A DNA stretch of 64,000 bases from Verrucomicrobiota bacterium (lineage in GTDB: Bacteria > Verrucomicrobiota > Verrucomicrobiia > Chthoniobacterales > UBA6821): positions 5,275-69,274 of the forward strand of contig JBAXXS010000001.1 in NCBI GenBank assembly GCA_037127835.1. Direction: 5' to 3'. How positions within the stretch are numbered: position 1 is the first letter of the stretch; each line of letters opens with the position of its first letter. Under the pieces are notes generated by a model. It was not told the DNA's origin. It searched no databases and worked only from the letters and a program-made list of their open reading frames with translations. A program made the translations under genes and the position numbers. Below, one piece after another: positions 12,564-52,652 of the stretch.

Positions 12564-13322
12564 TCAGGATCGCAACAACTTCTCTACGCGCGCAACATCT
12601 CCGGGCGTGTCGACCCCTATTCCGCGATGAGAGGTCATAACCACGCGGATTGGGATGCCGTTCTCTAGGGCGCGGAGTTGTTCAAGTTTCTCGCACAGCT
12701 CCAAAGGGCTCGGAGCGAAGCGCACCAGCTTCCGCAGCACGTCTCTGCGGTATCCATAGATGCCGAGGTGGAGCAGCGGGGCTACAGCGCTTGACTTGTC
12801 CTTCGCGTCGCGTTGATACGGGATCCTACTCCGTGAAAAATAAAGCGCGTTGCCCTTCCGGTCCACCACGACCTTCACGCAGTTAGGATCATCGGCTTCT
12901 TGGGGATCGGTGAAGGGGGTCGCCGCAGTGATCATACCGATACTTGAGTCGCGCTTCAGAGTCTTGGCCAATAAAGATATCAGGAGTGGATCGATCATTG
13001 GCTCATCACCCTGGACATTAATGAAGTGCGTCGCTTCTTTGAATCGCACGGCCACTTCAGCAATCCGGTCGGTACCGCTTGGATGATCGGGCGATGTCAT
13101 CACAACGTCGGCCCCGAAATTGAGCGCCGCCTCCGCAATCCGGTCGTCATCGGTGGCGATCAGGACACAGGAGATCCCTTTTGCTTGGAGAGAACGTTCC
13201 CAGACATGCTGAACCAATGGCTTGCCCGCGATCGGATGGAGGCACTTCCCTGGGAATCGCGTTGATCCCCAGCGGGCCGGGATAACGAGGGCGATTGTAG
13301 TTTTGGAGGTGAGAGCGCTCAT
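12564..13322 (-). CDS. kdsB: 3-deoxy-manno-octulosonate cytidylyltransferase (CMP-Kdo synthetase)
   Basis: 252 aa, with VIPARWGSTRFPGKCL, VNVQGDEP and an overall KdsB layout. Confidence 0.9.
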   Translation of the reverse strand: MSALTSKTTIALVIPARWGSTRFPGKCLHPIAGKPLVQHVWERSLQAKGISCVLIATDDDRIAEAALNFGADVVMTSPDHPSGTDRIAEVAVRFKEATHFINVQGDEPMIDPLLISLLAKTLKRDSSIGMITAATPFTDPQEADDPNCVKVVVDRKGNALYFSRSRIPYQRDAKDKSSAVAPLLHLGIYGYRRDVLRKLVRFAPSPLELCEKLEQLRALENGIPIRVVMTSHRGIGVDTPGDVARVEKLLRS

Positions 13323-13351
13323 GGTCGAAAAGGATTCAACGACTCAACGAC

Positions 13352-13891
13352 TTAAAGGGCACCATCGAGCACGAGGCGAACAGCTTCGGTGACCGTCGGC
13401 GCGATGAAGTCGGCCCCGCAGCCAAGATAATCTTTTCCGTAGCCTGTCTCCACGAGAATGGTATGCACACCTGCGTTCCGGCCGCACTCGATGTCGATCC
13501 CCTTGTCCCCGATCATGAAGGAGCGCTTGAGATCAATTCCATGCTCAGATGCCGCCTCGAGGATCATGCCGGGTGCCGGCTTGCGACGCAGTGAGGGATT
13601 GTCAGGATGGTCGGGTGCCATGTAGGAGGCATCGACTTCCCTATTGAGTTGGCGGAAAAGCTCGGCCTGCACGGATTCGAACTGCTCAACGGTGAAGTAG
13701 CCTCTGCCAATGCCGCTCTGGTTCGTGATGATGATCACAGTCCAACCGAGTGCACGCGCCCGAGCAAGCTCCTCGGCGGCACCAGGATAGGCTCTGACAT
13801 CTGAGGGGTCGTGACAATGGTCGACCTCGACCATGAGCGTTCCGTCGCGGTCGACAAAGAGGGCGGGACGCAGACCTTGGGTGCCGCTCAT
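13352..13891 (-). CDS. gmhB: D-glycero-D-manno-heptose 1,7-bisphosphate phosphatase (HAD family)
   Basis: 179 aa with HAD motif I FVDRDGTL, plus ITNQSGIGRGY and GDKGIDIECGRNAG. Its start overlaps the upstream kinase stop in an ATGA at 13888-13891. Confidence 0.85.
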   Translation of the reverse strand: MSGTQGLRPALFVDRDGTLMVEVDHCHDPSDVRAYPGAAEELARARALGWTVIIITNQSGIGRGYFTVEQFESVQAELFRQLNREVDASYMAPDHPDNPSLRRKPAPGMILEAASEHGIDLKRSFMIGDKGIDIECGRNAGVHTILVETGYGKDYLGCGADFIAPTVTEAVRLVLDGAL

Positions 13892-14895
13892 GTTTGAGCG
13901 AGATTCCTGAAACTCGCTTCCAGTTCGGTGCGTGTGCAGGTGGCGGTGCCCAGTTTGCCCACGACGATGCCAGCGGCATGGTTGGCCAGTTCGGCCGCCT
14001 CCTCCGGATTCGCTCCCGCTGTGATGCCTAGTGTGTAGAGAGAGATGGAAGTGTCACCCGCACCGGAAACGTCGAAGATTTCCCGGGCGCGTGTCGGCGT
14101 GTGATAAGGCGGATGCCCCTTGCGGAAGAGCATCATGCCCTGCTCGCTCAGGGTGATCAGGAGAGCGCCGGCATTCCAGCGGTTGAGAAGGATTTCACCC
14201 ACCTTCATAAGGGCAGCATCGTTTTCAACGGGATGAACAGGAGAGGAAAGTGGAATGCCTGCGGCGGCAAAGGCCTCGGAACGGTTCGGCTTGATCGTGA
14301 CGATGCCGGGCCATTCCAGGGGGTTTTTGGGATTGGGGTCGCAGGTGACGATCACGCCCTTCTCCCTTGCCTTTTCTAGGACGGCATCCACCAATCCTTG
14401 GTCGAGGAATCCCTTGCCATAGTCCTCAATAAGCACTGCATCGGCCTCTCCAACCAGTTGGCGTGCTTTACTCAGGATATCTTGTCTTTCCGAACCAGGT
14501 GCCATGCGCTGTTCGCGGTCCACTCGGACGACCTGCTGGCGCTGGGCAATGATCCGGGTTTTCACGATCGTCGGGATGGAAGGATGTGTGAAGAGGCCCT
14601 CCGTCGAGATTCCCTCGCTCCTTAGCAGCCCTGTGAGCTTTTCACCGGAGGCATCGGCCCCCACTATTCCAAGCATGGTGACCGAAGAGGTAAACTCCCG
14701 AAGATTGCGTGCCACGTTTGCCGCTCCGCCGGGATAGCTGGACTCGCTCTGCACCTCCACGATGGGCACCGGTGCCTCGGGCGAGATCCTGCCCACATTT
14801 CCCCAGACAAACTCGTCCAACATCAGGTCGCCAATGACGAGGAGTCGCTTGGCCGATGCCTTATCAAGAATGTGTTGTAATCTTTCCCGGTCCAT
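13888..14895 (-). CDS. hldA: D-beta-D-heptose 7-phosphate kinase (RfaE domain I / HldA-type, ribokinase fold)
   Basis: 335 aa. The N-terminus is LVIGDLMLDEFVWG and the ribokinase signature is FDVSGAGDT. The adenylyltransferase domain is not fused. Confidence 0.85.
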   Translation of the reverse strand: MDRERLQHILDKASAKRLLVIGDLMLDEFVWGNVGRISPEAPVPIVEVQSESSYPGGAANVARNLREFTSSVTMLGIVGADASGEKLTGLLRSEGISTEGLFTHPSIPTIVKTRIIAQRQQVVRVDREQRMAPGSERQDILSKARQLVGEADAVLIEDYGKGFLDQGLVDAVLEKAREKGVIVTCDPNPKNPLEWPGIVTIKPNRSEAFAAAGIPLSSPVHPVENDAALMKVGEILLNRWNAGALLITLSEQGMMLFRKGHPPYHTPTRAREIFDVSGAGDTSISLYTLGITAGANPEEAAELANHAAGIVVGKLGTATCTRTELEASFRNLAQT

Positions 14896-22497: not shown

Positions 22498-24909
22498 ATG
22501 AAGTCCCTTCGTTTTTTCTGGTTTGCACGACTTGCGGTTGCGGCTGTTTTGGTGTTTTGGCCGGGAGCGCGTTTGGATGCCCAAGTTCCCGGTCAAGCTC
22601 CGCTGATTCAGGAGATCAATGTCCAGTTCGTCGGCCCGACCACGCTCAGTAAGCAACGTGTCCTAGACAATCTGGCGACCAAGCCGGGGGCGCCTTATAA
22701 TGACCGTCTTGTCGAGGAGGATATCAAGTCTCTCTATGCCACGGGACAGGTCTCCAATGCCCGTATTTTCGCAGAACCAATCACCGGAGGACTAAAGGTG
22801 ACCGTCCTACTCCAGGGGCGGGCTACCGTGGGCGAGGTGATTATTGAGGGGGCGGATGCCATACCCAACTCCAAGATCCGCAAGGAAATCGCAACCAAGC
22901 CGGGCGAACCCCTCAGTGACGAGCGGCTCAACGATGACCGCCAGAAGATCCTCAAGCTTTACGAGGACAAGAATTACACCGACGTGAAGGTCGACACAAA
23001 GTCCACGGAGCTTCCCGACAAGAAGATGAAGGTCGCCTTCTTGATCAACGAAGGGCCGAAGCTCGTCATTCGCCGTATCTCCTTCACTGGAAATGATTCG
23101 GTACTTCCAAAGGATCTGATGAAGGTTATGAAGACTAAGACGGCCAACCTGCTTTCCTTTCTGACCAAGGCGGGTCGCCTTACTCCATTTCAGATGGACG
23201 AAGACAAGGAAGCGATTCGCACACTTTACCAGAGTAAGGGATTTGCAGACATGCGTGTTTCTGATGTCCAGACTACGCCGCTGCCGAACGGCAAGGGTGT
23301 CGATCTGGTGATTTCCATATCCGAGGGAACGCAGTACCGGGTAAACAAGCTCGATATCGACGGTGCCACTATCGTGGCTCCTGTTGATCTGGTGCGCTAC
23401 CTCAAGATGAGGACCGGATCCCTCTACACGCCGGATGGTATGGGTGCTGATCTGAAGAAAATCCGCGATTACTACGGTTCACGAGGCTATGTCGACATGG
23501 TCGCCCAACCGCAGATCACACCTGCTGGACAAGGACAGATCGATCTCACGTATCGCATAGATGAAGGAGTTCAGTCGTACGTAAATCTGATCAATGTTCA
23601 GGGCAATACGAAGACCAAGGACAAAGTCATCCGCCGCGAATTGGCCGTCCAACCCGGAGGGATCTTCGACACCACGCTGGTCGACGTCAGCAAGACTCGG
23701 TTGATGAATCTCAATTACTTTTCGAAAGTCGACACAGTCCCTGTCGACACCTTGGTTCCAGGTCGCAAGGATCTCGACGTCATCGTCGATGAGAAAAAGA
23801 CCGGATCCTTCAATTTCGGAGCCGGCTTCAGCTCCATCGATAGTTTGGTTGGATTTGCCGAAATGCAGCAGTCCAACTTCGACCTCTTCAACTGGCCCAA
23901 CTTCACCGGTGCCGGGCAGCGGTTCCGTATCCGCGGACAATACGGTCTGCAGCGTCAGGATTTCACCATGTCACTCACCGAGCCATGGTTCATGGGATAC
24001 AAGGTCTCCGTGGGCGGCGAGTTCTACTACCACGCCGCAACCTTCCTGAGTCCTGTCTACAGCCAGTCCAACCTCGGCGGAGCACTTCAAGCCCGCAAGG
24101 CACTGACTCCCTTCACTGCGCTGCGGGGAGAATACCGACTTGAGAATATTAACATAAACAATTTAACAGGCAATTACGGAAACGGTCAGGGGGTGACTCC
24201 GCAACAGCAGCAACAGGGAGCCATTCAGAATGCCGCCAACAACTCCCCCTACACCAAGAGTTGCATCTTACTCGGGATTGATTTTGATAACCGCGACAGT
24301 CTCTTCCTTACCCGCAAGGGGCAGTCGATTAACTTGACCGGATTCGTGGCTGGAGGGGGGCTTGGCGGAACGGTACAGGATTACGGTATCTCGCTCGATG
24401 CCAAGAAATATTTTTCCCTTCCGTGGGACATGATTCTCCTGACAAAGGGTTCCGTGGGTGTGGTGAATACTTGGGGAAGTGGAACTCAGGGGACAAATAC
24501 TCCACCGATCTTCGACGAACTCTACCTTGGTGGTGCCAATGACATGCGCGGCTTCGTCTTCAGGGGTGTTGGTCCCAAGGATTTTTACGGAAATCCTGTC
24601 GGTGGCAGCACCTCGGTCTATGGAACCGCAGAGTTGACCTTTCCGATCATCCCGCGTCTTCGAGGAGCGATCTTTACAGATTGGGGTTATGTAAACGCCA
24701 ATGCGTGGGATATCAACCCACAGTCCGTTACCACCGCTGCAAATGGGCAATCTTATACTTCCGGCGGGCTCAACGGCGACGTCGGTATCGGAGCCCGCAT
24801 CGAGTTGCCAATCGGCCCCATCCGTGTCGATTGGGGTTATCCTGTCATGACCGACTCCTGGAATAGGACAAGCGGCCAGTTCCAATTTAATGTTGGCTAC
24901 ACCTTCTAG
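22498..24909 (+). CDS. bamA: Outer-membrane protein assembly factor BamA
   Basis: 803 aa. A signal peptide and repeated POTRA-like units are followed by a C-terminal beta-barrel ending ...QFQFNVGYTF with a terminal aromatic residue. Confidence 0.9.
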   Translation: MKSLRFFWFARLAVAAVLVFWPGARLDAQVPGQAPLIQEINVQFVGPTTLSKQRVLDNLATKPGAPYNDRLVEEDIKSLYATGQVSNARIFAEPITGGLKVTVLLQGRATVGEVIIEGADAIPNSKIRKEIATKPGEPLSDERLNDDRQKILKLYEDKNYTDVKVDTKSTELPDKKMKVAFLINEGPKLVIRRISFTGNDSVLPKDLMKVMKTKTANLLSFLTKAGRLTPFQMDEDKEAIRTLYQSKGFADMRVSDVQTTPLPNGKGVDLVISISEGTQYRVNKLDIDGATIVAPVDLVRYLKMRTGSLYTPDGMGADLKKIRDYYGSRGYVDMVAQPQITPAGQGQIDLTYRIDEGVQSYVNLINVQGNTKTKDKVIRRELAVQPGGIFDTTLVDVSKTRLMNLNYFSKVDTVPVDTLVPGRKDLDVIVDEKKTGSFNFGAGFSSIDSLVGFAEMQQSNFDLFNWPNFTGAGQRFRIRGQYGLQRQDFTMSLTEPWFMGYKVSVGGEFYYHAATFLSPVYSQSNLGGALQARKALTPFTALRGEYRLENININNLTGNYGNGQGVTPQQQQQGAIQNAANNSPYTKSCILLGIDFDNRDSLFLTRKGQSINLTGFVAGGGLGGTVQDYGISLDAKKYFSLPWDMILLTKGSVGVVNTWGSGTQGTNTPPIFDELYLGGANDMRGFVFRGVGPKDFYGNPVGGSTSVYGTAELTFPIIPRLRGAIFTDWGYVNANAWDINPQSVTTAANGQSYTSGGLNGDVGIGARIELPIGPIRVDWGYPVMTDSWNRTSGQFQFNVGYTF

Positions 24910-24949
24910 TGTTGGCTATAACTGCAACTCAATTCCCAACTCAATCTAC

Positions 24950-25546
24950 ATGACATCCATCACCCGTATCTTTTTGCTCGCGGCACTTTTCGTTCTTGGT
25001 GGCGCGGGTTTCGCCAACGCACAGGTCAAGTTCGGTACAGTCGACATGAACCGTGTCTTCAGCGAGTATTACAAGACCAAGGATGCTCAGGCCAAGTATG
25101 CCGATGCCGAGAAGGCAGCTAATGACGACCTCAATGGACGCGTGGAAACCCTCAAGGCCAGCATGAAGGATATCAGTCAGCTGAATACCGACATCCAGAA
25201 ACCCGACCTGGCCAAAGATGACGCTGATGCCAAGAAAAAGGATCTGCAAACCAAGGTGGCTGCCGCACGCGCACTCGACAAGGAGATTGCCGACTATCGC
25301 AGCTCCAAGCAGAAGGCTCTTCAGGACCAGTTCCTCCGTATGCGCAAGGACATCGTCGACGACATCATGAAGACCGTGAACGATCTCGTGAAGGCCAAGG
25401 GCTATGACATCGTGTTTGACAAGTCCGGACTGAGCGCTGGTGCCGTGCCTGTTGTTCTCTATTCCCGGGATGATCTTGATTTCAGTCAGGATGTGATCAC
25501 GGCACTGAACAAGAACGCCCCGGCTAAGGCAGCCCCTGCCAAATAA
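24950..25546 (+). CDS. skp: OmpH/Skp-family periplasmic chaperone
   Basis: It has a signal peptide (MTSITRIFLLAALFVLGGAGFANAQ) and starts VKFGTVDMNRVFSEY, followed by a charged coiled coil. It sits between bamA and lpxD. Confidence 0.85.
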   Translation: MTSITRIFLLAALFVLGGAGFANAQVKFGTVDMNRVFSEYYKTKDAQAKYADAEKAANDDLNGRVETLKASMKDISQLNTDIQKPDLAKDDADAKKKDLQTKVAAARALDKEIADYRSSKQKALQDQFLRMRKDIVDDIMKTVNDLVKAKGYDIVFDKSGLSAGAVPVVLYSRDDLDFSQDVITALNKNAPAKAAPAK

Positions 25547-25579
25547 TCCGGCAACCCCGTTGCGTCGCCTCAGTCACCC

Positions 25580-26593
25580 ATGAGACTGCTGGAATTGGCA
25601 GCGCTCGCGGGATTCGAGGCCCCGATGGGTTCGGGCGAGTTGGAAATCACAGGTGTTGCTTCCTTGCAGGAGGCTCGCCCGAGTGACATCACATTCTTCG
25701 GAAATCCCCGTTACCTAGCCCAACTCCGCGTCTGCAAAGCTAGTGCAGTTTTTGTTTCCCAAGAGTTCGGGGAGGAGATCGGACCGGTACTCCTGAAAGT
25801 TGAGAATCCCTCCGCAGCCTTTGCCTCCGTGGTGGCAGCCTTTGCTCCACCCGAAGTGGTGCCTGAACCCGGCATCCATCCATCGGCCGTCGTCTCTTCT
25901 TCAGCAAAATTAGGGGAGCGGGTTTCTGTGGGACCTCAGGTCGTGATAGGAGAGTTGGCCGTGATTGGTTCTGGTTCTGTGATTGGAGCCGGATGCCTCA
26001 TCGGCAGTAAGGTGCATCTCGGTGAGGGATGTCATTTGCATCCCGGAGCGATCATCCGCGAGCGTTGCATTCTGGGCAACCGCGTCATTCTTCAACCGGG
26101 TGCAGTCATCGGATCGTGTGGATTCGGATACGAGTTCAAGGAGGGACGCCATATTAAGATTCCCCAGACCGGCATTGTTGAGATCGGTGATGACGTAGAG
26201 ATCGGGGCCAATACCACTGTCGACCGCGCCCGCTTCGGACGCACCGTCATCGGCGAGGGGAGCAAGATCGATAATCTGGTACAGATTGCCCACAATGTGC
26301 AGATCGGTTCTCACACCATCATCTGCTCCCAAGTCGGGATCTCGGGTAGCACGCGGATCGGGTCCTATGTCACTCTCGCCGGGCAGGTCGGCCTCGCCGG
26401 GCATATCGAAATCGGCGACAAGGCCGTGTTAGGAGCCAAGGCCGGCGTCTCCAAGAACGTCCCTGCGGGCTCGATGTTGATCGGCGCCCCTGCCAAGCCG
26501 ATGAAGGAGTTCAAGCAGACAAACTTCTATATTTCCCAGCTTCACAAACTCTACGACAGGGTTAAGGAGCTCGAAAAGTTGGTGCAAAAGTAA
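25580..26593 (+). CDS. lpxD: UDP-3-O-acylglucosamine N-acyltransferase
   Basis: 337 aa with left-handed beta-helix hexapeptide repeats, IAHNVQIG, and the conserved bamA-skp-lpxD context. Confidence 0.9.
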
Positions 26594-43649: not shown

Positions 43650-45977
43650 TTGAGAGATATTACTGACCCTTTGAGGATTGCTTTCCTTGGTGATTATTTG
43701 CCGAGGCTGTGCGGAATTGCAACGTTCACGCACGATCTGTGCGAGTCAATCGCGTCGATTGTCCCGGGTTGGGATTGCTTTGTCGCGGCAGTCAATGACC
43801 GCCCTGAAGGCTACGCCTACCCTCCGCGCGTGCGCTTTGAGATCTCGGAGAAGGATTTGAGCTCCTACCGGCGGATGGCAGATCTCCTGAACTTCAACAA
43901 TACCGACCTGCTCTGCGTACAGCATGAGTTCGGCATCTACGGGGGGGCTGCTGGCGGCCATCTGCTGGCCCTACTGAAGGAGGTTCGGATGCCGGTGGTC
44001 ACGACCCTTCATACGATCCTCAGCGATCCCGATGCGGCGCAGCGCAGGGTGATGGAGACATTGCTGTCGCGCAGCAGTCGTCTCGTCGTGATGTCCCGCA
44101 AGGGGCGTGAGATCCTGAAAGAAACCTACGGGGTCTCCGATGAGAAGGTGGATGTCATTCCACACGGCATACCTGATCTCGACTTTGTGGAATCCAGACT
44201 CTGCAAGGAACAGTTTGGTGTGGAAGGACGCCAGGTACTTCTTACCTTCGGTCTCATCGGACCCGGCAAGGGAATTGAGCACGCGATCGAGGCCCTGCCA
44301 GAGATCGTCCGAAGACATCCGAATGTCGTGTATCTGGTGCTTGGTGCAACGCATCCGCACCTGATGGCTAGTGAGGGGGAGCGTTATAGATTGAGTCTGG
44401 AAAGACTCGTCCAAGAACGCGGCGTCAAGGAGCATGTGATCTTTTACAACCGCTTTGTTTCATCGGATGACTTGAAGGAGTTTGTGGGTGCGACAGACAT
44501 CTATCTTACACCCTATCCGAACGAAGCGCAGGTTACCTCGGGCACCCTCTCCTATGTCATCGGTGCAGGAAAGGCCATTGTCTCCACTCCCTATTGGCAT
44601 GCACAGGAATTGCTTGCGGATGGACGAGGCATCCTGGTTCCGTTCCATAATCCCCAGGCCATCGCAGAGGGAGTTTGTGGCTTGCTTGATGACACTGTGC
44701 GTATGGAAAAGATCCGCAGGGATGCCTATGCCATGGGGCGAGAAATGATCTGGCCGACTGTTGCCAAACGCTACCTTCAAACCTTCGAGGAGGCCCGACG
44801 CGAACGACGGAATGATCCTCAAGTCGTAGTCGACTTCGATCGAAGGAGTGCTCCGCGTGCGGCTTTTGCGGGCTGGACGCTTGCCAGTCGTCCTCTGGAG
44901 CTCCCCCCCTTAAGGCTCGACCACATCATCCGCATGAGTGACGGCACGGGGATCTTCCAGCACGCGATTTTCAATGTGCCCAACTTTCACGAGGGCTATT
45001 GCACAGATGACAATGCGCGGGCCTACATACTCTGTAATCTGCTCGATGAGATCGGCGCCCAGCCTCCCATGGAGAATCTGGCCGCCCAGTCCACCTGCTA
45101 TCTTGCTTTTCTGGCCGCGGCTCTTGATCGGAACAGCGGACGCTTCCGTAACTTTATGAGTCACGGGCGCCAATGGCTTGAGGACGCCGGTAGCGAAGAC
45201 AGCCATGGGCGTGCCTTGTGGGGTCTCGGCTCAGGCGTGGGACGTTCGCGGAATGAGGGTCATCGGAAGCTGGCCGCGCAGATTTTTGAACTCGGGCTTG
45301 CCGCTGTTGAAGAATTCACTTCACCCAGAGCTTGGAATTTTGCCCTCCTGGGCATTCACGAGTATCAACGTCGTTTTCCGAACGAGGAAAAGACGAGTCT
45401 CCTGCGCGAAGTCCTCGTGGAAAGGCTCATCAAGCTCTGGAAAGAATATTCATCGGAGGACTGGCCCTGGTTTGAGGCGAGTCTCACCTATGATAATGCC
45501 CGCTTTTCGCAGGCGATGATCCTCAGCGGCGACTCGATGAACCATGAAGAAGCTCTCGCCATAGGACTCAAATCACTTCGCTGGCTGGCCTCGATCCAGA
45601 CGACTCAGCGTGGATGCTTTCGTCCCATCGGCAGCAATGGATTCTACCGGCGCGATGGTGAGCGAGCAGATTTCGACCAGCAGCCCCTGGAGGCCCTTGC
45701 TATGGTGTCGGCTTCCTGCGAGGCATTGCGGGTAACTGGGGATGCCATCTGGTCACCGGAGGCAAGGCGTTGCTTCGAGTGGTTCCTGGGACGTAATGAC
45801 CTGGATCTCCCTCTCTACGATTTCAGCACGGGCGGATGCAGTGACGGGCTCCATCACGACAGGGTGAGTGAAAACCAGGGTGCGGAATCCTCACTAGCCT
45901 TCCACCTCTCACTCGCGGAAATGAAATCAGCTGAACACATCACCCCCTTCATGCCTCTCCAACCTGTCTCCGCATGA
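43650..45977 (+). CDS. GT4-family (GT-B) glycosyltransferase fused to a ~370-aa C-terminal helical-repeat domain
   Basis: Residues ~1-400 read as a GT4 retaining glycosyltransferase (IAFLGDYLPRLCGIATF, LLCVQHEFGIYGG, VIPHGIP, LTFGLIGPGKGIE, YLTPYPNEAQVTSGTLSYVIGAGKAIVSTP). Residues ~400-775 have W/F-rich helical repeats (WPWFEASLTYDNARFSQA, NQGAESSLAF) that suggest an (alpha/alpha)6-toroid. The start is TTG and uncertain. Confidence 0.8.
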   Translation: MRDITDPLRIAFLGDYLPRLCGIATFTHDLCESIASIVPGWDCFVAAVNDRPEGYAYPPRVRFEISEKDLSSYRRMADLLNFNNTDLLCVQHEFGIYGGAAGGHLLALLKEVRMPVVTTLHTILSDPDAAQRRVMETLLSRSSRLVVMSRKGREILKETYGVSDEKVDVIPHGIPDLDFVESRLCKEQFGVEGRQVLLTFGLIGPGKGIEHAIEALPEIVRRHPNVVYLVLGATHPHLMASEGERYRLSLERLVQERGVKEHVIFYNRFVSSDDLKEFVGATDIYLTPYPNEAQVTSGTLSYVIGAGKAIVSTPYWHAQELLADGRGILVPFHNPQAIAEGVCGLLDDTVRMEKIRRDAYAMGREMIWPTVAKRYLQTFEEARRERRNDPQVVVDFDRRSAPRAAFAGWTLASRPLELPPLRLDHIIRMSDGTGIFQHAIFNVPNFHEGYCTDDNARAYILCNLLDEIGAQPPMENLAAQSTCYLAFLAAALDRNSGRFRNFMSHGRQWLEDAGSEDSHGRALWGLGSGVGRSRNEGHRKLAAQIFELGLAAVEEFTSPRAWNFALLGIHEYQRRFPNEEKTSLLREVLVERLIKLWKEYSSEDWPWFEASLTYDNARFSQAMILSGDSMNHEEALAIGLKSLRWLASIQTTQRGCFRPIGSNGFYRRDGERADFDQQPLEALAMVSASCEALRVTGDAIWSPEARRCFEWFLGRNDLDLPLYDFSTGGCSDGLHHDRVSENQGAESSLAFHLSLAEMKSAEHITPFMPLQPVSA

Positions 45978-47464
45978 TGAACTCCATTAATCTTCGACGC
46001 CATGAGGTGGTACTTCTACCCGATAGTGCACGCGTTATTATCCGCCCCTTTATTCCCGAGGATCCCCATCGGATCACCACCATTATAGGTCGCGCGCTTG
46101 CCCTGAGTGATGAGGAGGTCGGAAGCGAACTGGATTCCGTCCTGAGTGAGTTCGACTCGCGCCATTTCGATATTGAGTCATTGCTTGAGGGGCACTTTGG
46201 AAAAGTGAGTCACCATGTCTTTACTCAGCGGCCGCTTTCCCGTGAGCGTCAGTTACTTATCGGGGCGCTTTTCTCGGGAGAATATGCGCTCGAATCAGCG
46301 GCCATCTTCAACCCCTCCATCGTTCCTCATCCTGATCAAGGCGGAGTCCCGGAGGGTGGGCTTCGTTTCATTATGAGCCTGCGAGCCACGGGAGAGGGTC
46401 ATATCTCCTCCATTGAATTTCGATCAGGAATTATCGCCAACGATGGAGCGATTGCCCTAGATCCCGTCTCACGTTTCGTTACGGTTCCCGAAGTCCTGCC
46501 TAATCCCAGCTACTACAAGAAACGTTTCACTATCAAGCTGGCAGAGATGGGTTTCGATGAATGTCATGAGGGTGACGTGCTGCGGAAAACCCATGCCGCC
46601 GCGGTGATGGGTGAGCTCTCGGAAAACTTCACGCGTCATGATCTGAACGCGAGGGTGGATGCCGTACGAGTTCAAACCCAGCCCCCGACTCGCGACCTCG
46701 ACCGGACGCTGGACTGCATCCAATGGTTGGCCGATTCCAATTACGAACTCTGTTTTTCGGACAAGCTCGCAATGAGCGAACGGATCATCTTTCCGGTTTC
46801 GTCTAGCGAATCCTCCGGCATTGAGGACGCACGGTTCGTCCGGTTCATCGAGGATGATGGTTCGGTCATGTATTATGCGACGTACACGGCTTATAACGGA
46901 CGATCCATTCTGCCACAGCTCATCGAAACCAAGGATTTCCTGCACTTCCGCATCCTGACGCTTAACGGAAGTGCCGTGCAGAACAAGGGGATGGCACTTT
47001 TTCCCCGCCGCATCAATGGGCGTTACGCCATGCTCTCGCGCCAGGACGATGAGAACCTTTTCATCATGTTCTCGGATAGCCCTCATTACTGGAGCGATCC
47101 GCAAGTGATCCTGCGCCCTGCGGAAATGTGGGAGTCGGTGAAGATCGGCAATTGCGGCTCGCCCATCGAGACGGAGGCCGGTTGGCTTGTCATCACACAC
47201 GGGGTCGGGCCCATGAGGAAATACTGCATAGGTGCCGCCCTGCTCGAGTTGAACGATCCTACGAAGGTGATCGGGCGTCTTCGTGAGCCTCTTCTCTCAC
47301 CTATCGGAGCTGAACGTGAGGGATATGTCCCCAATGTCGTCTATAGTTGTGGTTCTCTACTTCATGGGCGTGAGCTGATTCTTCCATTTGCCGTGAGCGA
47401 CCGCGCCTCCGCCGTCGTCAGTGTTCCGTTGGATCCCTTGATTGCGTTGCTGAAGTCCGCTTAG
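45974..47464 (+). CDS. GH130-like (DUF377 / PH1107-related glycosidase-phosphorylase fold) protein with ~170-aa N-terminal extension
   Basis: It shows beta-propeller signatures (GIEDARFVRF...YYATYTAYNG, NKGMALFPRRINGRYAMLSR, KIGNCGSPIETEAGWLVITHGVG, YCIGAALLEL, VPNVVYSCG). Its ATG overlaps the upstream stop (ATGA at 45974-45977). Confidence 0.75.
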   Translation: MMNSINLRRHEVVLLPDSARVIIRPFIPEDPHRITTIIGRALALSDEEVGSELDSVLSEFDSRHFDIESLLEGHFGKVSHHVFTQRPLSRERQLLIGALFSGEYALESAAIFNPSIVPHPDQGGVPEGGLRFIMSLRATGEGHISSIEFRSGIIANDGAIALDPVSRFVTVPEVLPNPSYYKKRFTIKLAEMGFDECHEGDVLRKTHAAAVMGELSENFTRHDLNARVDAVRVQTQPPTRDLDRTLDCIQWLADSNYELCFSDKLAMSERIIFPVSSSESSGIEDARFVRFIEDDGSVMYYATYTAYNGRSILPQLIETKDFLHFRILTLNGSAVQNKGMALFPRRINGRYAMLSRQDDENLFIMFSDSPHYWSDPQVILRPAEMWESVKIGNCGSPIETEAGWLVITHGVGPMRKYCIGAALLELNDPTKVIGRLREPLLSPIGAEREGYVPNVVYSCGSLLHGRELILPFAVSDRASAVVSVPLDPLIALLKSA

Positions 47465-47537
47465 GTAACCATTTATCAGAGGCGCCCTAGACGCTTCTTG
47501 CACATTCCCGATCAATGAGGGTAGGGTCTTCCACCTC

Positions 47538-47611
47538 CGGGGCGTAGCTCAGCTTGGTAGAGCGCTTGGTTTGGGACCAAGAAGTCGCAGGTTCGAATCC
47601 TGTCGCCCCGA
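47538..47611 (+). tRNA. tRNA-Pro (anticodon UGG), CCA not encoded
   Basis: Hand-folded. Acceptor is CGGGGCG/CGCCCCG, D arm GCTC/GAGC, anticodon stem CTTGG/CCAAG with loop TTTGGGA, and T arm GCAGG-TTCGAAT-CCTGT. The discriminator is A. Confidence 0.9.
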
Positions 47612-47791
47612 TTTTTCTTTCGACAGGATGAGAACTTCAGTTCGATTGATTCGCTCGCGCCCGCTCGGCTCACCCTAAAGGGCTGTGCTGCCGCACAGTC
47701 TATCCATGCCGACCCCTCGGCGATGTATTGCCTGCGCTGTGCGCATTGCTCCTGAGCGAAGCCATTTTTGCAGAGCCCAGCCTGCTGGGAT

Positions 47792-47813
47792 AATCCTGTC
47801 GCCCGATTTTTTT
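47792..47813 (+). repeat. Direct repeat of the tRNA-Pro 3' end plus its T-run
   Basis: AATCCTGTCGCCCGATTTTTTT matches AATCCTGTCGCCCCGATTTTT at 47596-47616 with one C deleted. It lies 196 bp downstream of the original. Confidence 0.8.
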
Positions 47814-47901
47814 ACTGCCTCCTACTCTGTTTCTGCTCTGTGCGGATGCACGAAAGCATTTACACGTCCTCCGATTCCTGCGATTTTCCTACCAGAAAGC
47901 A

Positions 47902-49233
47902 ATGGCCAGAGACCTCTTCCAGAAGTGCCGAGAGTATAGCGATTCGGCAGATGCCCGAGCCCAGGGATTCTACCCGTATTTCCGCTGCATCGAGCAGAGC
48001 TACGGGAACCATGTTGTCTGCGGCGGCGAGGAGAAGATCATGATCGGGTCGAACAACTACCTCGGTCTGGCCCAGGATCCCCGTATCGTTGAGGCGGCCT
48101 GCGATGCGACCCGCCAGTTTGGTGCCGGATGCACCGGTTCCCGCCTGCTTAATGGCACAATCTCCCTCCATAATGAACTGGAAGAGGCGTTGGCAGCGTT
48201 CCTTGGCCGTGAAAGCGCCCTTCTTTTTTCCACCGGTTTTTTTGCCAATCAGGGTGCTCTTGCCGCTCTGACCGAGGCCGATGATTTCATTCTCTGCGAC
48301 CGTGAGAACCATGCCTCGATCATCGAAGGTTGCCAGGTAGCCCCGGCAAAGCTGGTTCCCTACCGTCACAACTCTGAGGATGCTCTTCGCAACAGACTCA
48401 AGCGCATCCCTGAGGAGTCAGGCCGTCTCATTATCATGGATGGCGTCTTCAGTATGTCCGGTGATATGGCTGACCTGCCGCCGATGGTGAAGGCAGCCAA
48501 GGAATATGACGCCATCATGTATGTCGACGAGGCCCATTCACTCGGTGTGGTCGGACCTCAAGGGCGCGGCGTGGTCCATCACTTCGGGGTCAATGACGAT
48601 GTCGAGATCGTCATGGGGACCTTTTCCAAGTCGTTCGGTTCCATGGGTGGTTTCATCTCCGGTTCGCATGAGATGATCGAGTTCGTAAAGCACAAGGCCC
48701 GCTGCTTCATCTTCACTGCCTCGCTCGCTCCAGCCGTGGTCGGTGGAGTCCTCAAGGCCCTCGAAATCATGCAGGCGGAACCGGAGCGCATTGAGATGCT
48801 CTGGCGCAACACCCGCAAGATGCATGAAGGGTTCAAGTCGATCGGATTCAAGATCGGCTCGACCCAGAGCCCGATCGTTCCGATCCTTATCGGCAGCGAG
48901 GCCAAAGCGTTCGCCTTCGCCCAGCGTCTCTTCGAGGAGGGTGTCTTCGCCATACCCGCTATTTACCCAGCCGTTCGTTATGGTGAGGCGATCGTCCGCA
49001 CCAGTTTCATGTCGACCCATACGGAGGAGGATCTGGACAAGGTACTCGACATCTTCGCCAAGATTGCGAGAGAACTAGGGACTTTCGATGACCCAGCATA
49101 CACAGAACCAGGCCGCCGCCGGAACGTTTTCGATTTTGCCCTGCCTCAGCGCGGCGGAGCTGAAGAAGTTCGAGTCGATTCCGGAAATTCTTCACGGAAC
49201 GGATCCGAGCTTCACGCCGCCGTTTCCCGGTAG
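47902..49233 (+). CDS. Alpha-oxoamine synthase, serine-palmitoyltransferase-like
   Basis: Motifs are IGSNNYLGL, FGAGCTGSRLLNGT, FSTGFFANQGA, VPYRHNS, DEAHSLG, the PLP-lysine GTFSKSFGSMGG, and IFTASL. The conserved fold ends near residue ~393 (IARELG). The last ~48 codons run on into the next gene. Confidence 0.85.
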   Translation: MARDLFQKCREYSDSADARAQGFYPYFRCIEQSYGNHVVCGGEEKIMIGSNNYLGLAQDPRIVEAACDATRQFGAGCTGSRLLNGTISLHNELEEALAAFLGRESALLFSTGFFANQGALAALTEADDFILCDRENHASIIEGCQVAPAKLVPYRHNSEDALRNRLKRIPEESGRLIIMDGVFSMSGDMADLPPMVKAAKEYDAIMYVDEAHSLGVVGPQGRGVVHHFGVNDDVEIVMGTFSKSFGSMGGFISGSHEMIEFVKHKARCFIFTASLAPAVVGGVLKALEIMQAEPERIEMLWRNTRKMHEGFKSIGFKIGSTQSPIVPILIGSEAKAFAFAQRLFEEGVFAIPAIYPAVRYGEAIVRTSFMSTHTEEDLDKVLDIFAKIARELGTFDDPAYTEPGRRRNVFDFALPQRGGAEEVRVDSGNSSRNGSELHAAVSR

Positions 49234-50239
49234 TGTCGTCGGCCTTATTGGCCCGAAGTCCGTTTTCTTAAAGAAGCACGGGGAGATTATTCCCCTCATC
49301 GCGTACCGCGATGGGAAGCCAGTCGGGCGCATTGCTGCCATTGTCAACCGCTCCCACAACAACTATAGCAAGGACTCAGTCGGCTTTTTCGGATTCTTCG
49401 ATTTCATCAACGACTCCTCGGTGGCAAAAGCGCTTATCGATGCGGCGGCTAAGATCCTGAAGGAGAAAGGTATGACCATCATGCGTGGTCCTTATAACCC
49501 GTCCATCAATGACGATTGTGGGGTGCTGACTGAGGGGAATGACAGGCCGACCTCTGTTTCGATGCCTTGGAATCCCCCTTATTATGCGGAGGTCTACAAG
49601 GCAGCGGGCCTGGAGGTCGTCCGCACTCTTGCCGCCTATGATGTTCCGCTGCACAACGATCCTCCTGAGCGAGTGAGCAAGATCGTGAATCGCATTAGAA
49701 ATCGTAACAGCGTTACAGTGCGGTCCCTCGATATGAAAAATCTGCCGAAGGAAATGGAGATTATTCATCGGCTCTACAACATCACACTGGATCGGAACTG
49801 GGGATTCTATCCGATCGCGTTGGATGATTTGCTTCACTCTGCTGATGACCTTAAGGCGATCGCAGATCCCAAGATGATTTTTTTTGTCTGCATGGATGGA
49901 AAGGAGGTCGGATTCTCACTCACCCTCCCGAATGTGAACGAGGTGTTCCATGCCTCCCGAGGCCGCAAGGGGATCCTCCGCTTTATGGAGATGGCGCTAC
50001 GACTACAGATCTGCAAGCCAAAGACCAGTCGACTTTGCGTGTTGGGTGTCGAGCCCGATTATCGCGACAAGGGACTAAGCGCTCTCCTCTTTTATGAGAG
50101 CTTCATGGTTTCAAAAGTGAAGCACAGCGTTGTGGAAGTCTCTTGGGTGGAAGCCAACAATGTGGAGATTCTTGAGGCCGCGAAACTCATGGGAGGCCAT
50201 TGTTCCCGGACCTACGAGATTTTCGAGAAGGCTCTCTAG
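49088..50239 (+). CDS. N-acyltransferase-like protein (GNAT-type motif A in C-terminal half), function unknown
   Basis: 383 aa, with GRIAAIVNRSHN, FGFFDF, MRGPYNPSINDDCGVL and a C-terminal LGVEPDYRDKGLSALL (an R-x-x-G-x-S/A acetyl-CoA-binding-type motif). Its first 146 nt overlap the upstream ORF in another frame. Confidence 0.6.
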   Translation: MTQHTQNQAAAGTFSILPCLSAAELKKFESIPEILHGTDPSFTPPFPGSVVGLIGPKSVFLKKHGEIIPLIAYRDGKPVGRIAAIVNRSHNNYSKDSVGFFGFFDFINDSSVAKALIDAAAKILKEKGMTIMRGPYNPSINDDCGVLTEGNDRPTSVSMPWNPPYYAEVYKAAGLEVVRTLAAYDVPLHNDPPERVSKIVNRIRNRNSVTVRSLDMKNLPKEMEIIHRLYNITLDRNWGFYPIALDDLLHSADDLKAIADPKMIFFVCMDGKEVGFSLTLPNVNEVFHASRGRKGILRFMEMALRLQICKPKTSRLCVLGVEPDYRDKGLSALLFYESFMVSKVKHSVVEVSWVEANNVEILEAAKLMGGHCSRTYEIFEKAL

Positions 50240-50283
50240 CCTCTGCAAAGATTCTCCTGATCGAGATCGGGAATCACTTTTTT

Positions 50284-51285
50284 ATGGAACTTCTGCTGAC
50301 TGGCTCCACGGGATTTGTAGGACGGAATCTGTTGCTTAAGCTTCATCGTGACTCCCGCTGGAGCCGGATCATTCTTCCGGTTCGCGATCTGGAAAAGCTC
50401 CGCTCCCAACTTGAGGGTGAGGGGATCTCCGACGAGCGATTCGCCCCCTGCCGTGTCACCGGGGACTTCTGGACGCTCCCTCCGGGTACGTCTCCTGATC
50501 TAGTAATCCATGCGGCAGGGCTGCTCTTTGCACGGAGCCGCGAGGAGTATTTTGCAACGAATGTTGAGGGAACCCTGCGCCTGATGGCCCAGTTGCCGAG
50601 GACGGCCCGGATCATCGTTCTCTCCTCCCAGGCCGCTGGAGGGCCCACGGCGCGGGGGAAGAATGCGCGCTCGATGGATGACGAGGATCAACCCGTCTCC
50701 CTTTATGGTGCATCGAAGCTCACCATGGAGAGGGAACTTCGCAATCGCCTCGGTCGTCGCCTCCTGATCCTGCGCCCACCGATGGTGCTCGGGCCGCGCG
50801 ATGCTGCCACGCTTCCACTCTTCAAGATGGCTGCCGGTGCCGTGCGGGTTAAGCCGGGCTTCGCTCCGAAGCATTACAGCTGGATCGATGTCGAGGATCT
50901 GTGCAACGCGATTCTGGCGGCTGCGCTTATTGCGCCCGCCGACTGGGAAAAGCATGGTCCCTTCTATCTCGGCTCCCTTACCACGATCACTGACCATGAA
51001 TTAATTGCGACGGCTGCCAAGGCCATCAATGCGCATGGAATTACGCTAGCGCTGCCTCATGCTGCGATCCAACTCGCTTCTCTGGCCATCGACATCGTCT
51101 CGGCATGGCGAGCCGCCGCACCCAGCCTGGGGCGTGACCGCGTGCGGGAAATTCTGCCCGACCGCTGGGTCTGCGATTCGGATCCCTTTTCCGAACATTT
51201 CGGATGGAGTCCCCGTTTAGAAGGCAACCTTGAGAACACCCTACGCTCCACGGCGGAGTGGTTGAAGAAACAGGGAAAGATCTGA
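50284..51285 (+). CDS. NAD(P)-dependent epimerase/dehydratase-family extended SDR
   Basis: The Rossmann motif is LLLTGSTGFVGRNL and the catalytic motif is SLYGASK. ATG at 50284 is preferred over the ORF-track start at 50200. Confidence 0.85.
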   Translation: MELLLTGSTGFVGRNLLLKLHRDSRWSRIILPVRDLEKLRSQLEGEGISDERFAPCRVTGDFWTLPPGTSPDLVIHAAGLLFARSREEYFATNVEGTLRLMAQLPRTARIIVLSSQAAGGPTARGKNARSMDDEDQPVSLYGASKLTMERELRNRLGRRLLILRPPMVLGPRDAATLPLFKMAAGAVRVKPGFAPKHYSWIDVEDLCNAILAAALIAPADWEKHGPFYLGSLTTITDHELIATAAKAINAHGITLALPHAAIQLASLAIDIVSAWRAAAPSLGRDRVREILPDRWVCDSDPFSEHFGWSPRLEGNLENTLRSTAEWLKKQGKI

Positions 51286-51364
51286 ACTGGAAAAACCTGA
51301 GTGGGCACTAGAGATCTCGGTTCTTCATTTCACCTTTCAGGTCTCAAGTTTCATCCCTCAACGA

Positions 51365-52102
51365 TCAATTCATACCGGGATCATCCGGTGCCTGGGCGAG
51401 CAAATGATGCATCGATCCAAGTTTTTTCATGATCGCCTTCCAGCGCGTGATGCCATCTTCAGTAGTGCTCACAGGGTGCAGCATGTCGGCTGTGGGTTTA
51501 AGAAGGTGCCAGGATTGTTCAGCGATCTCTTGCTCGAGTTGTCCTGCCGTCCATCCTGCATAGCCGGTAAAAGCCCTGAGATTCTGATGTTTGTTATGAA
51601 CGGAGCCGGGAGCGCCATCCTGATCTTCTTCAGCATTCAGTTGGAAAAGATCCTCCTCTCCGAGCGATTGGAAACGCACCCCCGTTTCCTTCCAGAGCAG
51701 GCGGGTCAGGATCAGATGCTGCTGTTCCACAGGGCCTCCCTCGAAAACAGGCACGGCGTCTAAATCCATCGGTGACTCAGTTAGTTCCCCCAGGCTCTCA
51801 TTCCTAGGGCGGTTCAGGATGAAACCCATGGCGCCCTCCTGATCGTGGTGGGTAAGGAAGAGTATGGAACGCCGGAAACTCGGGTCCCGTAGGGACGGAA
51901 GAGCTACTAGAAGTAAGCCTGCGTAGTGAGATTCAGCTGGAAGAGGTTGCTTAAGACGCACGGAAGTATTTTCAACCCTCTTGAGGGACAGATCAATCCT
52001 GGATGGCGAAGTTGGATGCTGGATACTTGAGGGAGCACTATCGGAGAGTGCTGAAAAAATGTGAAAAGGGTGGCAGATTGTGGGCTGCAATAAAAAAATC
52101 AA
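51365..52102 (-). CDS. YqgE/AlgH-family protein (UPF0301)
   Basis: The conserved core is GLLLVALPSLRDPSFRRSILFLTHHDQEGAMGFILNRP...FEGGPV...AFTGYAGWTAGQLEQEI. The 5' end is uncertain: the ORF begins with TTG, and the first ~60 aa are not family-like. Confidence 0.75.
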   Translation of the reverse strand: MIFLLQPTICHPFHIFSALSDSAPSSIQHPTSPSRIDLSLKRVENTSVRLKQPLPAESHYAGLLLVALPSLRDPSFRRSILFLTHHDQEGAMGFILNRPRNESLGELTESPMDLDAVPVFEGGPVEQQHLILTRLLWKETGVRFQSLGEEDLFQLNAEEDQDGAPGSVHNKHQNLRAFTGYAGWTAGQLEQEIAEQSWHLLKPTADMLHPVSTTEDGITRWKAIMKKLGSMHHLLAQAPDDPGMN

Positions 52103-52226
52103 AAAATCTCTTGCCCCTAAGGACCGGATCAGCTTTTATTCCCACCCTTTTTCGCCGTAAACGGCACTAGGCAGACTCGCGCATTCTTTTTCAACTTTCC
52201 TTTTTCACCCTCTCCAAACTCGAACC

Positions 52227-52652
52227 ATGGCCAAAGAAATCACAGGACAGATCAAACTTCAGATCCCAGCCGGACAGGCCAATCCAGCCCCTCCGGTAGG
52301 GCCCGCACTTGGTCAGCAGGGTGTCAACATCATGGCCTTCTGTAAGGAGTTCAATGCCGCAACGCAGAAACAGGCCGGCGATATCCTGCCCGTCGTCATC
52401 ACTGTCTATAAGGACAAATCCTTCACTTTCATCACCAAGCAGCCTCCCTCCGGAGTGCTCCTCAAGAAGGCAGCGGGTATCGCTTCCGGTTCCAAAGAGC
52501 CGAACAAGGTCAAGGTGGCCAAGCTCACCAAGAAACAGGTCATGGATCTCGTGAAGATCAAGATGAAGGACATGAATGCCAACAGTGAGGAGGCCGCCTT
52601 CCGTACCCTCTGTGGTACCGCCCGCCAGATGGGTATTGAGATAGAAGCATAA
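52227..52652 (+). CDS. rplK: 50S ribosomal protein L11
   Basis: 141 aa, with [36 protein letters not shown]. Confidence 0.97.

Follow-up and report, generated by a model that had tools for sequence, protein, structure and literature searches.

A probable ceramide-backbone operon of the Spt/bCerS/CerR type in Chthoniobacterales (Verrucomicrobiota)

Results

Three overlapping or adjacent genes form a candidate ceramide operon

The host of the 64,000-nucleotide stretch of DNA that we analysed (hereafter the window), a member of the Chthoniobacterales (Verrucomicrobiota), very probably carries a ceramide-backbone operon of the Spt/bCerS/CerR type. This reading draws on how the genes are built, on the families, catalytic residues and folds of their products, and on conserved linkage and gene fusion, and concerns three genes on the plus strand: an Spt-like alpha-oxoamine synthase (AOS) of 443 amino acids (47902-49233), a putative bCerS-type tandem-GNAT N-acyltransferase of 383 amino acids (49088-50239) and a CerR-type extended SDR of 333 amino acids (50284-51285). 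The original prediction had described three same-strand genes just 3' of a tRNA-Pro gene, and we recovered all three ORFs at those positions, with tRNA-Pro(TGG) at 47538-47611. The motifs that it had quoted were likewise all present in their ORFs, with GSNNYLGL, GAGCTGSRLLNGT, VPYRHNSEDALRNRLKRIPEE, DEAHSLG, GTFSKSFGSMGG and IFTASL in the AOS, YRDKGLSALL in the GNAT protein, and GSTGFVG and YGASK in the SDR. The 290-nt gap between tRNA-Pro and the synthase gene contains a candidate sigma-70 promoter-like match on the plus strand (TTTGCA-16-GATAAT, 47767-47794; 9 of 12 positions matching, with TG), which is weak and at chance level, as 2 such sites were found against 1.8 expected in shuffled sequence.

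We consider it probable that the three genes form one operon that builds the ceramide (dihydroceramide) backbone. Every check of the pathway originally proposed that could be run points to Spt, a bCerS-type N-acyltransferase and a CerR-type reductase.

The synthase resembles bacterial serine palmitoyltransferase

The AOS matched Aminotran_1_2 in Pfam with 199 bits. Its best NCBIfam match was NF047600, 'serine palmitoyltransferase' of the CFB type, with 491 bits, a score below the equivalog cut-off of 640, followed by TIGR01825 (407 bits), BioF (385), Kbl (383), HemA (267) and CqsA (228), and for the BioF and Kbl models the score fell below each model's own cut-off as well as below that obtained with Spt. 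Among solved structures, the serine palmitoyltransferase (SPT) of Sphingobacterium multivorum was the top match (407 bits), ahead of Kbl (265 bits), a cysteate acyltransferase (235 bits) and BioF (191 bits). The AOS had been read by eye as more like Spt than like BioF or Kbl, and both sets of scores bear this out, with Spt clearly highest in the comparison with BioF, Kbl, HemA, CqsA and cysteate acyltransferase. The alignment with the S. multivorum enzyme runs ungapped over 385 residues at 46% identity, and the conserved active-site residues of the S. multivorum and S. wittichii SPTs, namely a His, an Asp, a second His, the PLP-binding Lys and a C-terminal Arg, are matched in the AOS by His137, Asp209, His212, Lys243 (in GTFSKS) and Arg366. 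In a neighbour-joining tree the AOS grouped with GNAT-linked synthases and both characterised SPTs, leaving Kbl and BioF of E. coli outside, with low bootstrap values at the deep nodes; the Verrucomicrobia/Bdellovibrionales Spt clade formed a distinct branch with 100% support. These data support the assignment of the AOS as a bacterial Spt, whose putative reaction would be the condensation of L-serine with a long-chain acyl thioester.

It is hardly conceivable that the AOS is instead an ordinary BioF or Kbl standing beside an unrelated GNAT protein and SDR. Relatives are publicly annotated as '8-amino-7-oxononanoate synthase' or as generic aminotransferases, as that reading would have it, but the BioF and Kbl profiles and structures lie 100-200 bits under Spt, and the synthase gene adjoins a GNAT gene across phyla and is fused to it in several lineages. 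Nor, in agreement with the original prediction of no biotin or threonine-degradation neighbours, was any bio or tdh gene found among the scanned ORFs. Together, the profile scores and the fusions effectively refute a BioF/Kbl identity.

The same enzymology could also act on another amino acid, with alanine or glycine giving 1-deoxy-ceramide-like products and cysteate giving sulfonolipids of the capnine/sulfobacin type. The amino-acid substrate of an AOS cannot be assigned by sequence alone, 1-deoxyceramides arise from the same enzymes when alanine replaces serine (as stated in the supplement to PMC11334938), the Spt score is below the curated cut-off, and the Verrucomicrobia/Bdellovibrionales branch is a separate one. 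Against these points stand the 46% identity to a biochemically characterised SPT with its catalytic residues kept, the score with the solved cysteate-C-fatty acyltransferase, which is 235 bits versus 407 for true SPT, and the scanned ORFs, none of which resembles a cysteate synthase. We regard a substrate other than serine as unlikely. The sulfonolipid variant is a weak alternative on these sequence comparisons, and the two last-named results speak against the capnine/sulfonolipid pathway (CapB/SulA, CapC). The original prediction had described capnine-type sulfonolipid synthesis as the same chemistries minus acylation, which is incorrect, since sulfonolipids need N-acylation too.

The synthase gene overlaps the acyltransferase gene and encodes a conserved tail

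The Spt-like AOS has a feature absent from the original prediction: its ORF overlaps that of the GNAT protein, which lies in the +1 frame, by 146 nt (49088-49233). Beyond the canonical AOS fold, which reaches to about residue 394, the protein has a 49-residue tail. The first 20 residues of this tail are conserved in the verrucomicrobial/bdellovibrional clade, and their coding sequence overlaps the following gene. This segment (49084-49147, plus strand), with the motif FDDPAYxxPGRR(K/R)NVFDFxL, is partly dual-coded with the first 20 GNAT codons and is kept in Chthoniobacterales, Terrimicrobiaceae and Bdellovibrionota-like loci. In 20 related loci, codon-phase entropy showed the variation to be concentrated at the third positions of Spt codons as far as about 49147 and at those of GNAT codons from about 49178. 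The overlap with the GNAT start leads some gene callers to drop the Spt gene, which is uncalled in at least 2 public assemblies.

We raise as a speculative and rather doubtful idea that the 20-residue tail (FDDPAYxxPGRRKNVFDF) of this clade is a docking peptide, by which Spt would be held at the membrane or at the bCerS-type acyltransferase. If so, 3-ketosphinganine would be channelled directly into N-acylation, and the tail would achieve non-covalently what the Spt-bCerS fusions of other lineages do by a covalent link.

The second gene encodes a tandem-GNAT protein with a homologue at the cerS position of a Caulobacter-type region

Neither Pfam nor NCBIfam has a dedicated model for the large family to which the GNAT protein belongs: the Pfam search gave a weak Acetyltransf_1 match (22 bits) confined to the C-terminal half, and the NCBIfam search gave no match. 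Its AF2 model (pLDDT 82) has as top folds the tandem GNATs 5kf1 (a glucosamine N-acetyltransferase), 2wpw and 1ozp (MshD), with probability 1.0, and G329, the glycine of its CoA-binding motif, is invariant. Like mycothiol synthase MshD (1ozp) and the Clostridium enzyme 5kf1, it combines two GNAT domains in a single chain, and the C-terminal one holds the CoA-binding motif. The structural matches to tandem GNATs (Foldseek E 5e-14 to 1e-11, TM 0.5-0.7) come with just 12-15% identity, and whereas 1ozp and 5kf1 transfer acetyl groups to sugar amines, the window protein would transfer a long-chain acyl group to the amine of a lipid.

Residues 16-383 align with WP_019463172 of Roseomonas mucosa at 30% identity (pairwise E 1e-49; E = 8e-28 in a search of 7.3 Gb). 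The gene for this homologue sits between two LptF/LptG paralogues and a nucleotidyltransferase (NTP transferase) gene, in a region where ACP, Spt, DAG-kinase-family and CDP-alcohol phosphatidyltransferase genes are also found. Because this neighbourhood fits the Caulobacter CC_1152-CC_1168 layout, in which CC_1154 is cerS (PMC11324152), we take WP_019463172 to be the cerS-position protein. The family is broader than bCerS, as E. coli YghO is a 28% homologue without sphingolipid context. The acyltransferase reading first given to this protein holds on motif, fold and homology, and the positional orthologue together with the conserved context supports its assignment as a putative bCerS-type N-acyltransferase.

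The third gene encodes an extended SDR of probable CerR type

The SDR matched Epimerase in Pfam (67 bits), its AF2 model (pLDDT 87) has the extended-SDR fold, and G7xxG10xxG13, S114/S115 and Y141xxxK145 are invariant in its alignment. The original prediction of an extended SDR is upheld by motifs and fold, but the start of the ORF listed for it, TTG 50200 (361 aa), is not the real one: the best 120 homologues are mostly 328-339 aa long and align from the Met encoded at ATG 50284 (333 aa), which is almost certainly the start. Foldseek matches include the complex I chain 9f5x_P, which we take to be an NDUFA9-type subunit, and the fold fails to separate NDUFA9 from sugar epimerases. The N-terminus of the SDR has no signal peptide, and its first Rossmann strand starts at residue 2; for Caulobacter CerR a periplasmic location has been reported (PMC11087976).

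No SDR homologue was found in the fetched Roseomonas region. A search of plasmid records (E<=1e-8) matched only 6, of which 3 (Rubrobacter, Streptomyces and Aureispira) carry the SDR in AOS-GNAT-SDR clusters and the other 3 are from Bacteroidales. The assignment of the SDR as a putative CerR-type reductase is supported.

The genes are linked across phyla and fused in several lineages

The original prediction had named co-occurrence of the three genes in related genomes as a check, and they do occur together, across phyla. An Spt-like gene adjoins a GNAT gene in 54 of 73 informative loci from many phyla, and the complete trio is found together in 26 of 41; such linkage was seen in Verrucomicrobiota, Bdellovibrionota, Gemmatimonadota, Ignavibacteria, Zixibacteria and Binatia. 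Ten loci from close relatives are without an adjacent SDR gene. The AOS-GNAT-SDR order is common to Streptomyces and Rubrobacter, and in Aureispira the trio is present with the SDR gene divergent upstream. Four loci encode Spt and GNAT as a single ORF, and in another the GNAT is fused to an AMP-binding (acyl-activating) domain. The existence of Spt-GNAT and GNAT-acyl-AMP-ligase fusions lends independent genomic support to the proposed bCerS function.

The plasmid loci are also what speaks for a product of a different kind, namely a small N-acyl amino-ketone or amino-alcohol signal or secondary metabolite, comparable to CqsA-type autoinducers, rather than a bulk membrane lipid: the Streptomyces plasmid trio is followed by a condensation-domain protein, and the family occurs on Rubrobacter and Aureispira plasmids too. 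In the window and in close relatives, however, the trio has a conserved syntenic position amid housekeeping genes, those for ribosomal proteins included, its composition is that of the established ceramide pathway, and CqsA has the lowest AOS-family profile score (228 bits), so that such a metabolite would be a very improbable product here.

Discussion

A ceramide-type lipid is the product that we favour. Homology and the Caulobacter model (PMC11087976) are the basis on which we infer the substrates, the order of the second and third steps, the cofactor, where in the cell the enzymes act and which lipid results in the end. The PLP enzyme would condense L-serine with a long-chain acyl-CoA to 3-ketodihydrosphingosine, the tandem-GNAT protein would N-acylate the free amine with a second acyl-CoA to give 3-oxo-ceramide, and the extended SDR would use NAD(P)H to reduce the 3-keto group, yielding dihydroceramide. 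We assume acyl-CoA and not a dedicated acyl-ACP as the donor because the cluster has no ACP or acyl-ACP synthetase gene. The original prediction had remarked on this, and by tblastn neither was found in the 64-kb window, where the Roseomonas ACP, the AasR-like protein and seven other cluster proteins used as queries gave no match; an ACP-dependent Spt system (AcpR/AasR) was rejected on this result. According to PMC9386255, the ACP and acyl-ACP synthetase pair accompanies spt in alpha-, beta- and gamma-proteobacteria, and its absence is expected here for that reason.

[quoted passage not shown] 2022; Olea-Ozuna et al. 2021). Validated proteins of B. fragilis are reportedly BF9343_4218 for bCerS and BF9343_4240 for CerR. 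The window shares with that pathway a PLP-dependent AOS, a GNAT-type N-acyltransferase and an NDUFA9/epimerase-like extended SDR, clustered and with the same three chemistries, as well as the full-length homology of its GNAT protein to the cerS-position protein of a Caulobacter-type region. Unlike it, the window has neither AcpR nor AasR and none of the genes that serve anionic head groups and transport (ceramide kinase, CpgD, LptF2/G2), its genes are compact and overlapping whereas those of Caulobacter are dispersed over about 17 genes, and its Spt is of the Bacteroidota (CFB) and not the alphaproteobacterial sequence type. With S. multivorum SPT (PDB 3a2b, 8guh) the AOS shares, besides sequence identity and catalytic residues, a soluble homodimer-type AOS architecture and, as we assume, acyl-CoA use; it differs in its additional C-terminal tail.

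The available passages of Ding et al. 2024 (ISME J, PMC11334938) describe Spt, bCerS and CerR as 'often found clustered' and report them from about 40 phyla, with 22 MAGs of Verrucomicrobiota among the carriers, which makes the window trio a further member of a known system and not a new kind. The MAGs of that survey are marine, from the Black Sea, and have the same co-localised trio, with genes not always adjacent; the window is from a Chthoniobacterales lineage whose relatives are MAGs from various public assemblies, and the overlap, the tail and the fusions described here go unmentioned in those passages. The original prediction that this lipid class is undemonstrated in the lineage stands insofar as our literature search found no paper demonstrating ceramide-pathway lipids in Verrucomicrobia, but Spt-like genes were already listed for Verrucomicrobiota in the consulted part of PMC11334938. 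The locus is a well-resolved example of a probable ceramide operon for Chthoniobacterales, which are widespread in soil and freshwater and for which we found no lipid evidence. Proteome-based sphingolipid surveys may undercount this clade because its Spt is labelled BioF or 'aminotransferase', or is uncalled.

The window also encodes KdsB, a GmhB-like protein, an HldE-like kinase, BamA, Skp and LpxD, and these genes make a lipid A-containing outer membrane a reasonable assumption, though the 'full' LPS toolkit of the original prediction was an overstatement. The combination suggests that LPS-bearing Chthoniobacterales diderms may make sphingolipids as well.

Organization of the cluster and identity of the synthase

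The cluster had been predicted to consist of three co-directional genes, and the list of open reading frames bore this out: the Spt-like alpha-oxoamine synthase (47902-49233, 443 aa), the GNAT-type N-acyltransferase (49088-50239, 383 aa) and the extended SDR (50200-51285 as open from the first TTG, 361 aa) all lie on the plus strand, downstream of a tRNA-Pro(TGG) at 47538-47611, and every motif quoted in the original prediction was found in them. The SDR gene almost certainly starts at ATG 50284 and encodes 333 aa, since its 120 best homologues, most of them 328-339 aa long, align from this internal Met. This start leaves a gap of 44 nt after the GNAT stop, within which we observed a terminator-like hairpin with a T-run (50255-50272), a kind of site that was no commoner than in shuffled sequences. 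Promoter and terminator scanning of the cluster region likewise gave site counts no better than shuffles, and an Rfam scan of 47400-52300 returned the tRNA alone, with no riboswitch or leader.

The synthase matched Aminotran_1_2 in Pfam, and its best NCBIfam model was the serine palmitoyltransferase equivalog of the Bacteroidota type, which scored 491 bits against a curated cut-off of 640. Lower scores were obtained with TIGR01825 (BioF/Kbl subfamily, 407), betaproteobacterial Spt (400), BioF (385), Kbl (383), alphaproteobacterial Spt (350), HemA (267) and CqsA (228), so that the profile comparison favoured Spt over BioF or Kbl, as had been proposed by eye, and the BioF/Kbl and CqsA assignments were rejected. 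Among solved structures in the PDB, the highest score corresponded to Sphingobacterium multivorum SPT (407 bits; 46% identity over 385 residues without gaps), followed by Thermus BioF/Kbl (312), the Sphingomonas SPTs (~297-303), Kbl (265), cysteate-C-fatty acyltransferase (235) and BioF (~191). Residues H137, D209, H212, K243 and R366 are kept in the alignment to the S. multivorum enzyme. A sulfonolipid pathway was rejected on the difference between the cysteate-C-fatty acyltransferase and SPT scores in the PDB comparison, together with the gene context. In a neighbor-joining tree, the synthase fell in a clade with 100% support together with Verrucomicrobia and one Bdellovibrionales MAG, nested in an assemblage that holds both characterised SPTs and all GNAT-linked synthases and leaves E. 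coli Kbl, Thermus BioF/Kbl and E. coli BioF outside, with weak support at the deep nodes.

The synthase and GNAT ORFs share 146 nt, with GNAT in the +1 frame. Spt extends 49 aa past its canonical fold (49084-49233); the first 20 residues of this tail, FDDPAYxxPGRR(K/R)NVFDFxL, are kept in the Spt frame across verrucomicrobial and Bdellovibrionota-like loci, and the remainder, which overlaps the GNAT gene, is unconstrained. Codon-phase analysis of 20 related loci showed that Spt-frame selection persists for ~20 codons past the canonical fold, to ~49147 (FDDPAYxxPGRRKNVFDF), that the GNAT frame predominates from ~49178 on, and that ~30 nt, roughly 49118-49147, look constrained in both frames. 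The same-strand overlap of 146 nt is the likely cause of missed or trimmed gene calls. In two contigs identical to the window (L087 and L088), the public calls omit Spt and place instead two antisense ORFs of 150-169 aa on the minus strand (L087 1773-2933; L088 86-1246, equivalent to window 47860-49020); public records lack the exact Spt product, the DNA itself being present. Other annotation pipelines kept both genes or shortened one of them (GNAT to 350 aa or Spt to 415 aa), and the Spt proteins of relatives carry the public names BioF or generic aminotransferase.

The candidate N-acyltransferase belongs to a large GNAT family

The only Pfam match of the GNAT protein was Acetyltransf_1, at 22 bits and in its C-terminal half, and no NCBIfam model matched; the family has no model of its own in either collection. 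It is nevertheless large, with 2079 relatives in a word-indexed search and, in an exhaustive search, 8575 representatives (50% identity level) at E<=1e-3, 1769 of them at E<=1e-30. The AlphaFold2 model (pLDDT 82) is a tandem GNAT whose nearest folds are glucosamine N-acetyltransferase, the clavulanate tandem GNAT and mycothiol synthase MshD; neither a sequence search of the PDB nor the list of the model's 50 best fold matches contained a bCerS structure.

As a proxy for Caulobacter bCerS, we used a plasmid region of Roseomonas mucosa, linked to Caulobacter by gene layout. A tblastn search against plasmids located there a full-length GNAT homologue (WP_019463172; 30% identity, pairwise E 1e-49). 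Its neighbourhood has genes for an ACP, an Spt-like aminotransferase, proteins of the DAG-kinase and sterol-desaturase families, a CDP-alcohol phosphatidyltransferase and two LptF/LptG paralogues, and a nucleotidyltransferase gene comes directly after the homologue. This layout matches that described for Caulobacter CC_1152-CC_1168, where CC_1154 is the ceramide N-acyltransferase and CC_1155/56 are lptG2/lptF2 (PMC11324152); a further report assigns ccna_01210, the cytidylyltransferase CpgD, to the same ceramide diphosphoglycerate operon (PMC13228409). The same search recovered E. coli YghO, which is shorter and 28% identical to GNAT. Plasmid matches from E. coli, Pseudomonas, Klebsiella and Rahnella (H22-H27) comprised YghO and similar 'N-acetyltransferase' genes, 28-30% identical, shorter and without sphingolipid context. 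Because such YghO-type relatives belong to it, the family, as judged by sequence, is broader than bCerS and ceramide synthesis.

The reductase

The SDR matched Epimerase in Pfam, and its GxxGxxG, Ser and YxxxK elements are invariant in the alignment. Foldseek comparison of its AlphaFold2 model (pLDDT 87) with the PDB gave NDUFA9-type and sugar-epimerase matches at equal E-values and was not decisive for CerR membership. More telling is the distribution of sequence matches, as in 7.3 Gb of plasmid records the SDR matched only six places at E<=1e-8: directly after AOS and GNAT genes in Rubrobacter and Streptomyces, divergent from an AOS-GNAT pair in Aureispira, and in three Bacteroidales. The Parabacteroides match has no GNAT homologue within 20 kb on either side and therefore could not be used as a link to Bacteroides CerS/CerR. 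No signal peptide is visible in the SDR, even though a periplasmic location has been reported for Caulobacter CerR (PMC11087976).

Co-occurrence and distribution of the three genes

When one genome per species was scanned with the GNAT alignment, 548 of the first 600 candidates proved to be relatives; the nearest was 81% identical in GNAT and 97% in Spt, which places the window in Chthoniobacterales. The 80 best relatives were distributed among Chthoniobacterales, Terrimicrobiaceae, Bdellovibrionota, Planctomycetota, Zixibacteria, Gemmatimonadales, Ignavibacteria, Kapabacteria, Cloacimonadota, Binatia, Elusimicrobia, Rhodothermus, Poribacteria and Alphaproteobacteria. Co-occurrence held for the Spt-GNAT pair, which is adjacent in 54 of the 73 loci with enough flank, and for the trio in 26 of 41 loci; adjacency of the SDR did not extend to several close relatives. 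In one Verrucomicrobiia MAG (L008, 7091-11155), the pair directly follows an ORF that by eye resembles D-3-phosphoglycerate dehydrogenase (serine biosynthesis) and is followed by a small 151-aa ORF, with no adjacent SDR.

Spt and GNAT form single ORFs in two alphaproteobacterial MAGs (L051 8597-11062; L071 8369-11140) and in the database proteins P0419 and P0468, and in P0433 the GNAT unit is fused to an AMP-binding acyl-activating domain. The top match of the representative search, P0361, was rejected as a fusion because it carries the GNAT unit duplicated in tandem.

The Chthoniobacterales Spt and GNAT are nearest to those of Bdellovibrionota-like MAGs (L024, L027, L032 and L033; 63-69% and 45-48% identity, respectively) and not to those of other phyla, a pattern suggestive of lateral operon transfer. 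Two close relatives labelled as Proteobacteria/Pseudomonadota MAGs (L002 and L013) may be mis-binned.

Proposed pathway and genomic context

In a scheme modelled on the homologous Caulobacter pathway (PMC11087976), from which we infer substrates, step order and localisation, Spt would join serine and acyl-CoA into 3-ketosphinganine, GNAT would N-acylate this product, and the SDR would then reduce the 3-keto group to give dihydroceramide. Ding et al. 2024 describe the three genes as frequently clustered in genomes; starting from 9 phyla with homologues of Spt, bCerS and CerR, they arrive at 40 phyla with Spt-like proteins, and they count 22 Verrucomicrobiota MAGs among the Spt-like encoders (PMC11334938). 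Since such clusters have already been reported, Verrucomicrobiota included, the one in the window, correctly recognised from the sequence, is very probably another member and not a new kind of system. Our literature search found no paper showing sphingolipids in Verrucomicrobia, in line with the earlier statement that no demonstration of it in the lineage was known.

ACP, acyl-ACP synthetase, ceramide kinase and LptF/G paralogue genes were all absent from the 64-kb window by tblastn, the first two as previously noted for the cluster. Their absence fits PMC9386255, which describes the ACP/synthetase pair as a companion of spt in alpha-, beta- and gamma-proteobacteria.

The window also carries the housekeeping genes gyrA, hisS, aspS, hemB and ribosomal-protein genes with rpoB, followed by a large ORF. 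Genes for KdsB, a GmhB-like phosphatase and a PfkB/HldE-like kinase (minus strand) and for BamA, Skp (OmpH) and LpxD (plus strand) lie within 12564-14895 and 22498-26593. Because of these envelope genes, the host would be a lipid A-bearing diderm, and any ceramide would coexist with LPS and not replace it, as originally argued. Directly upstream of tRNA-Pro and the candidate ceramide operon (43650-47464), a 775-aa GT4 glycosyltransferase gene with a long C-terminal extension overlaps by 4 nt a 496-aa GH130-like gene (beta-mannoside phosphorylase family), and a GH130 gene is also found nearby in relatives (L017, L087 and the P0007 contig).
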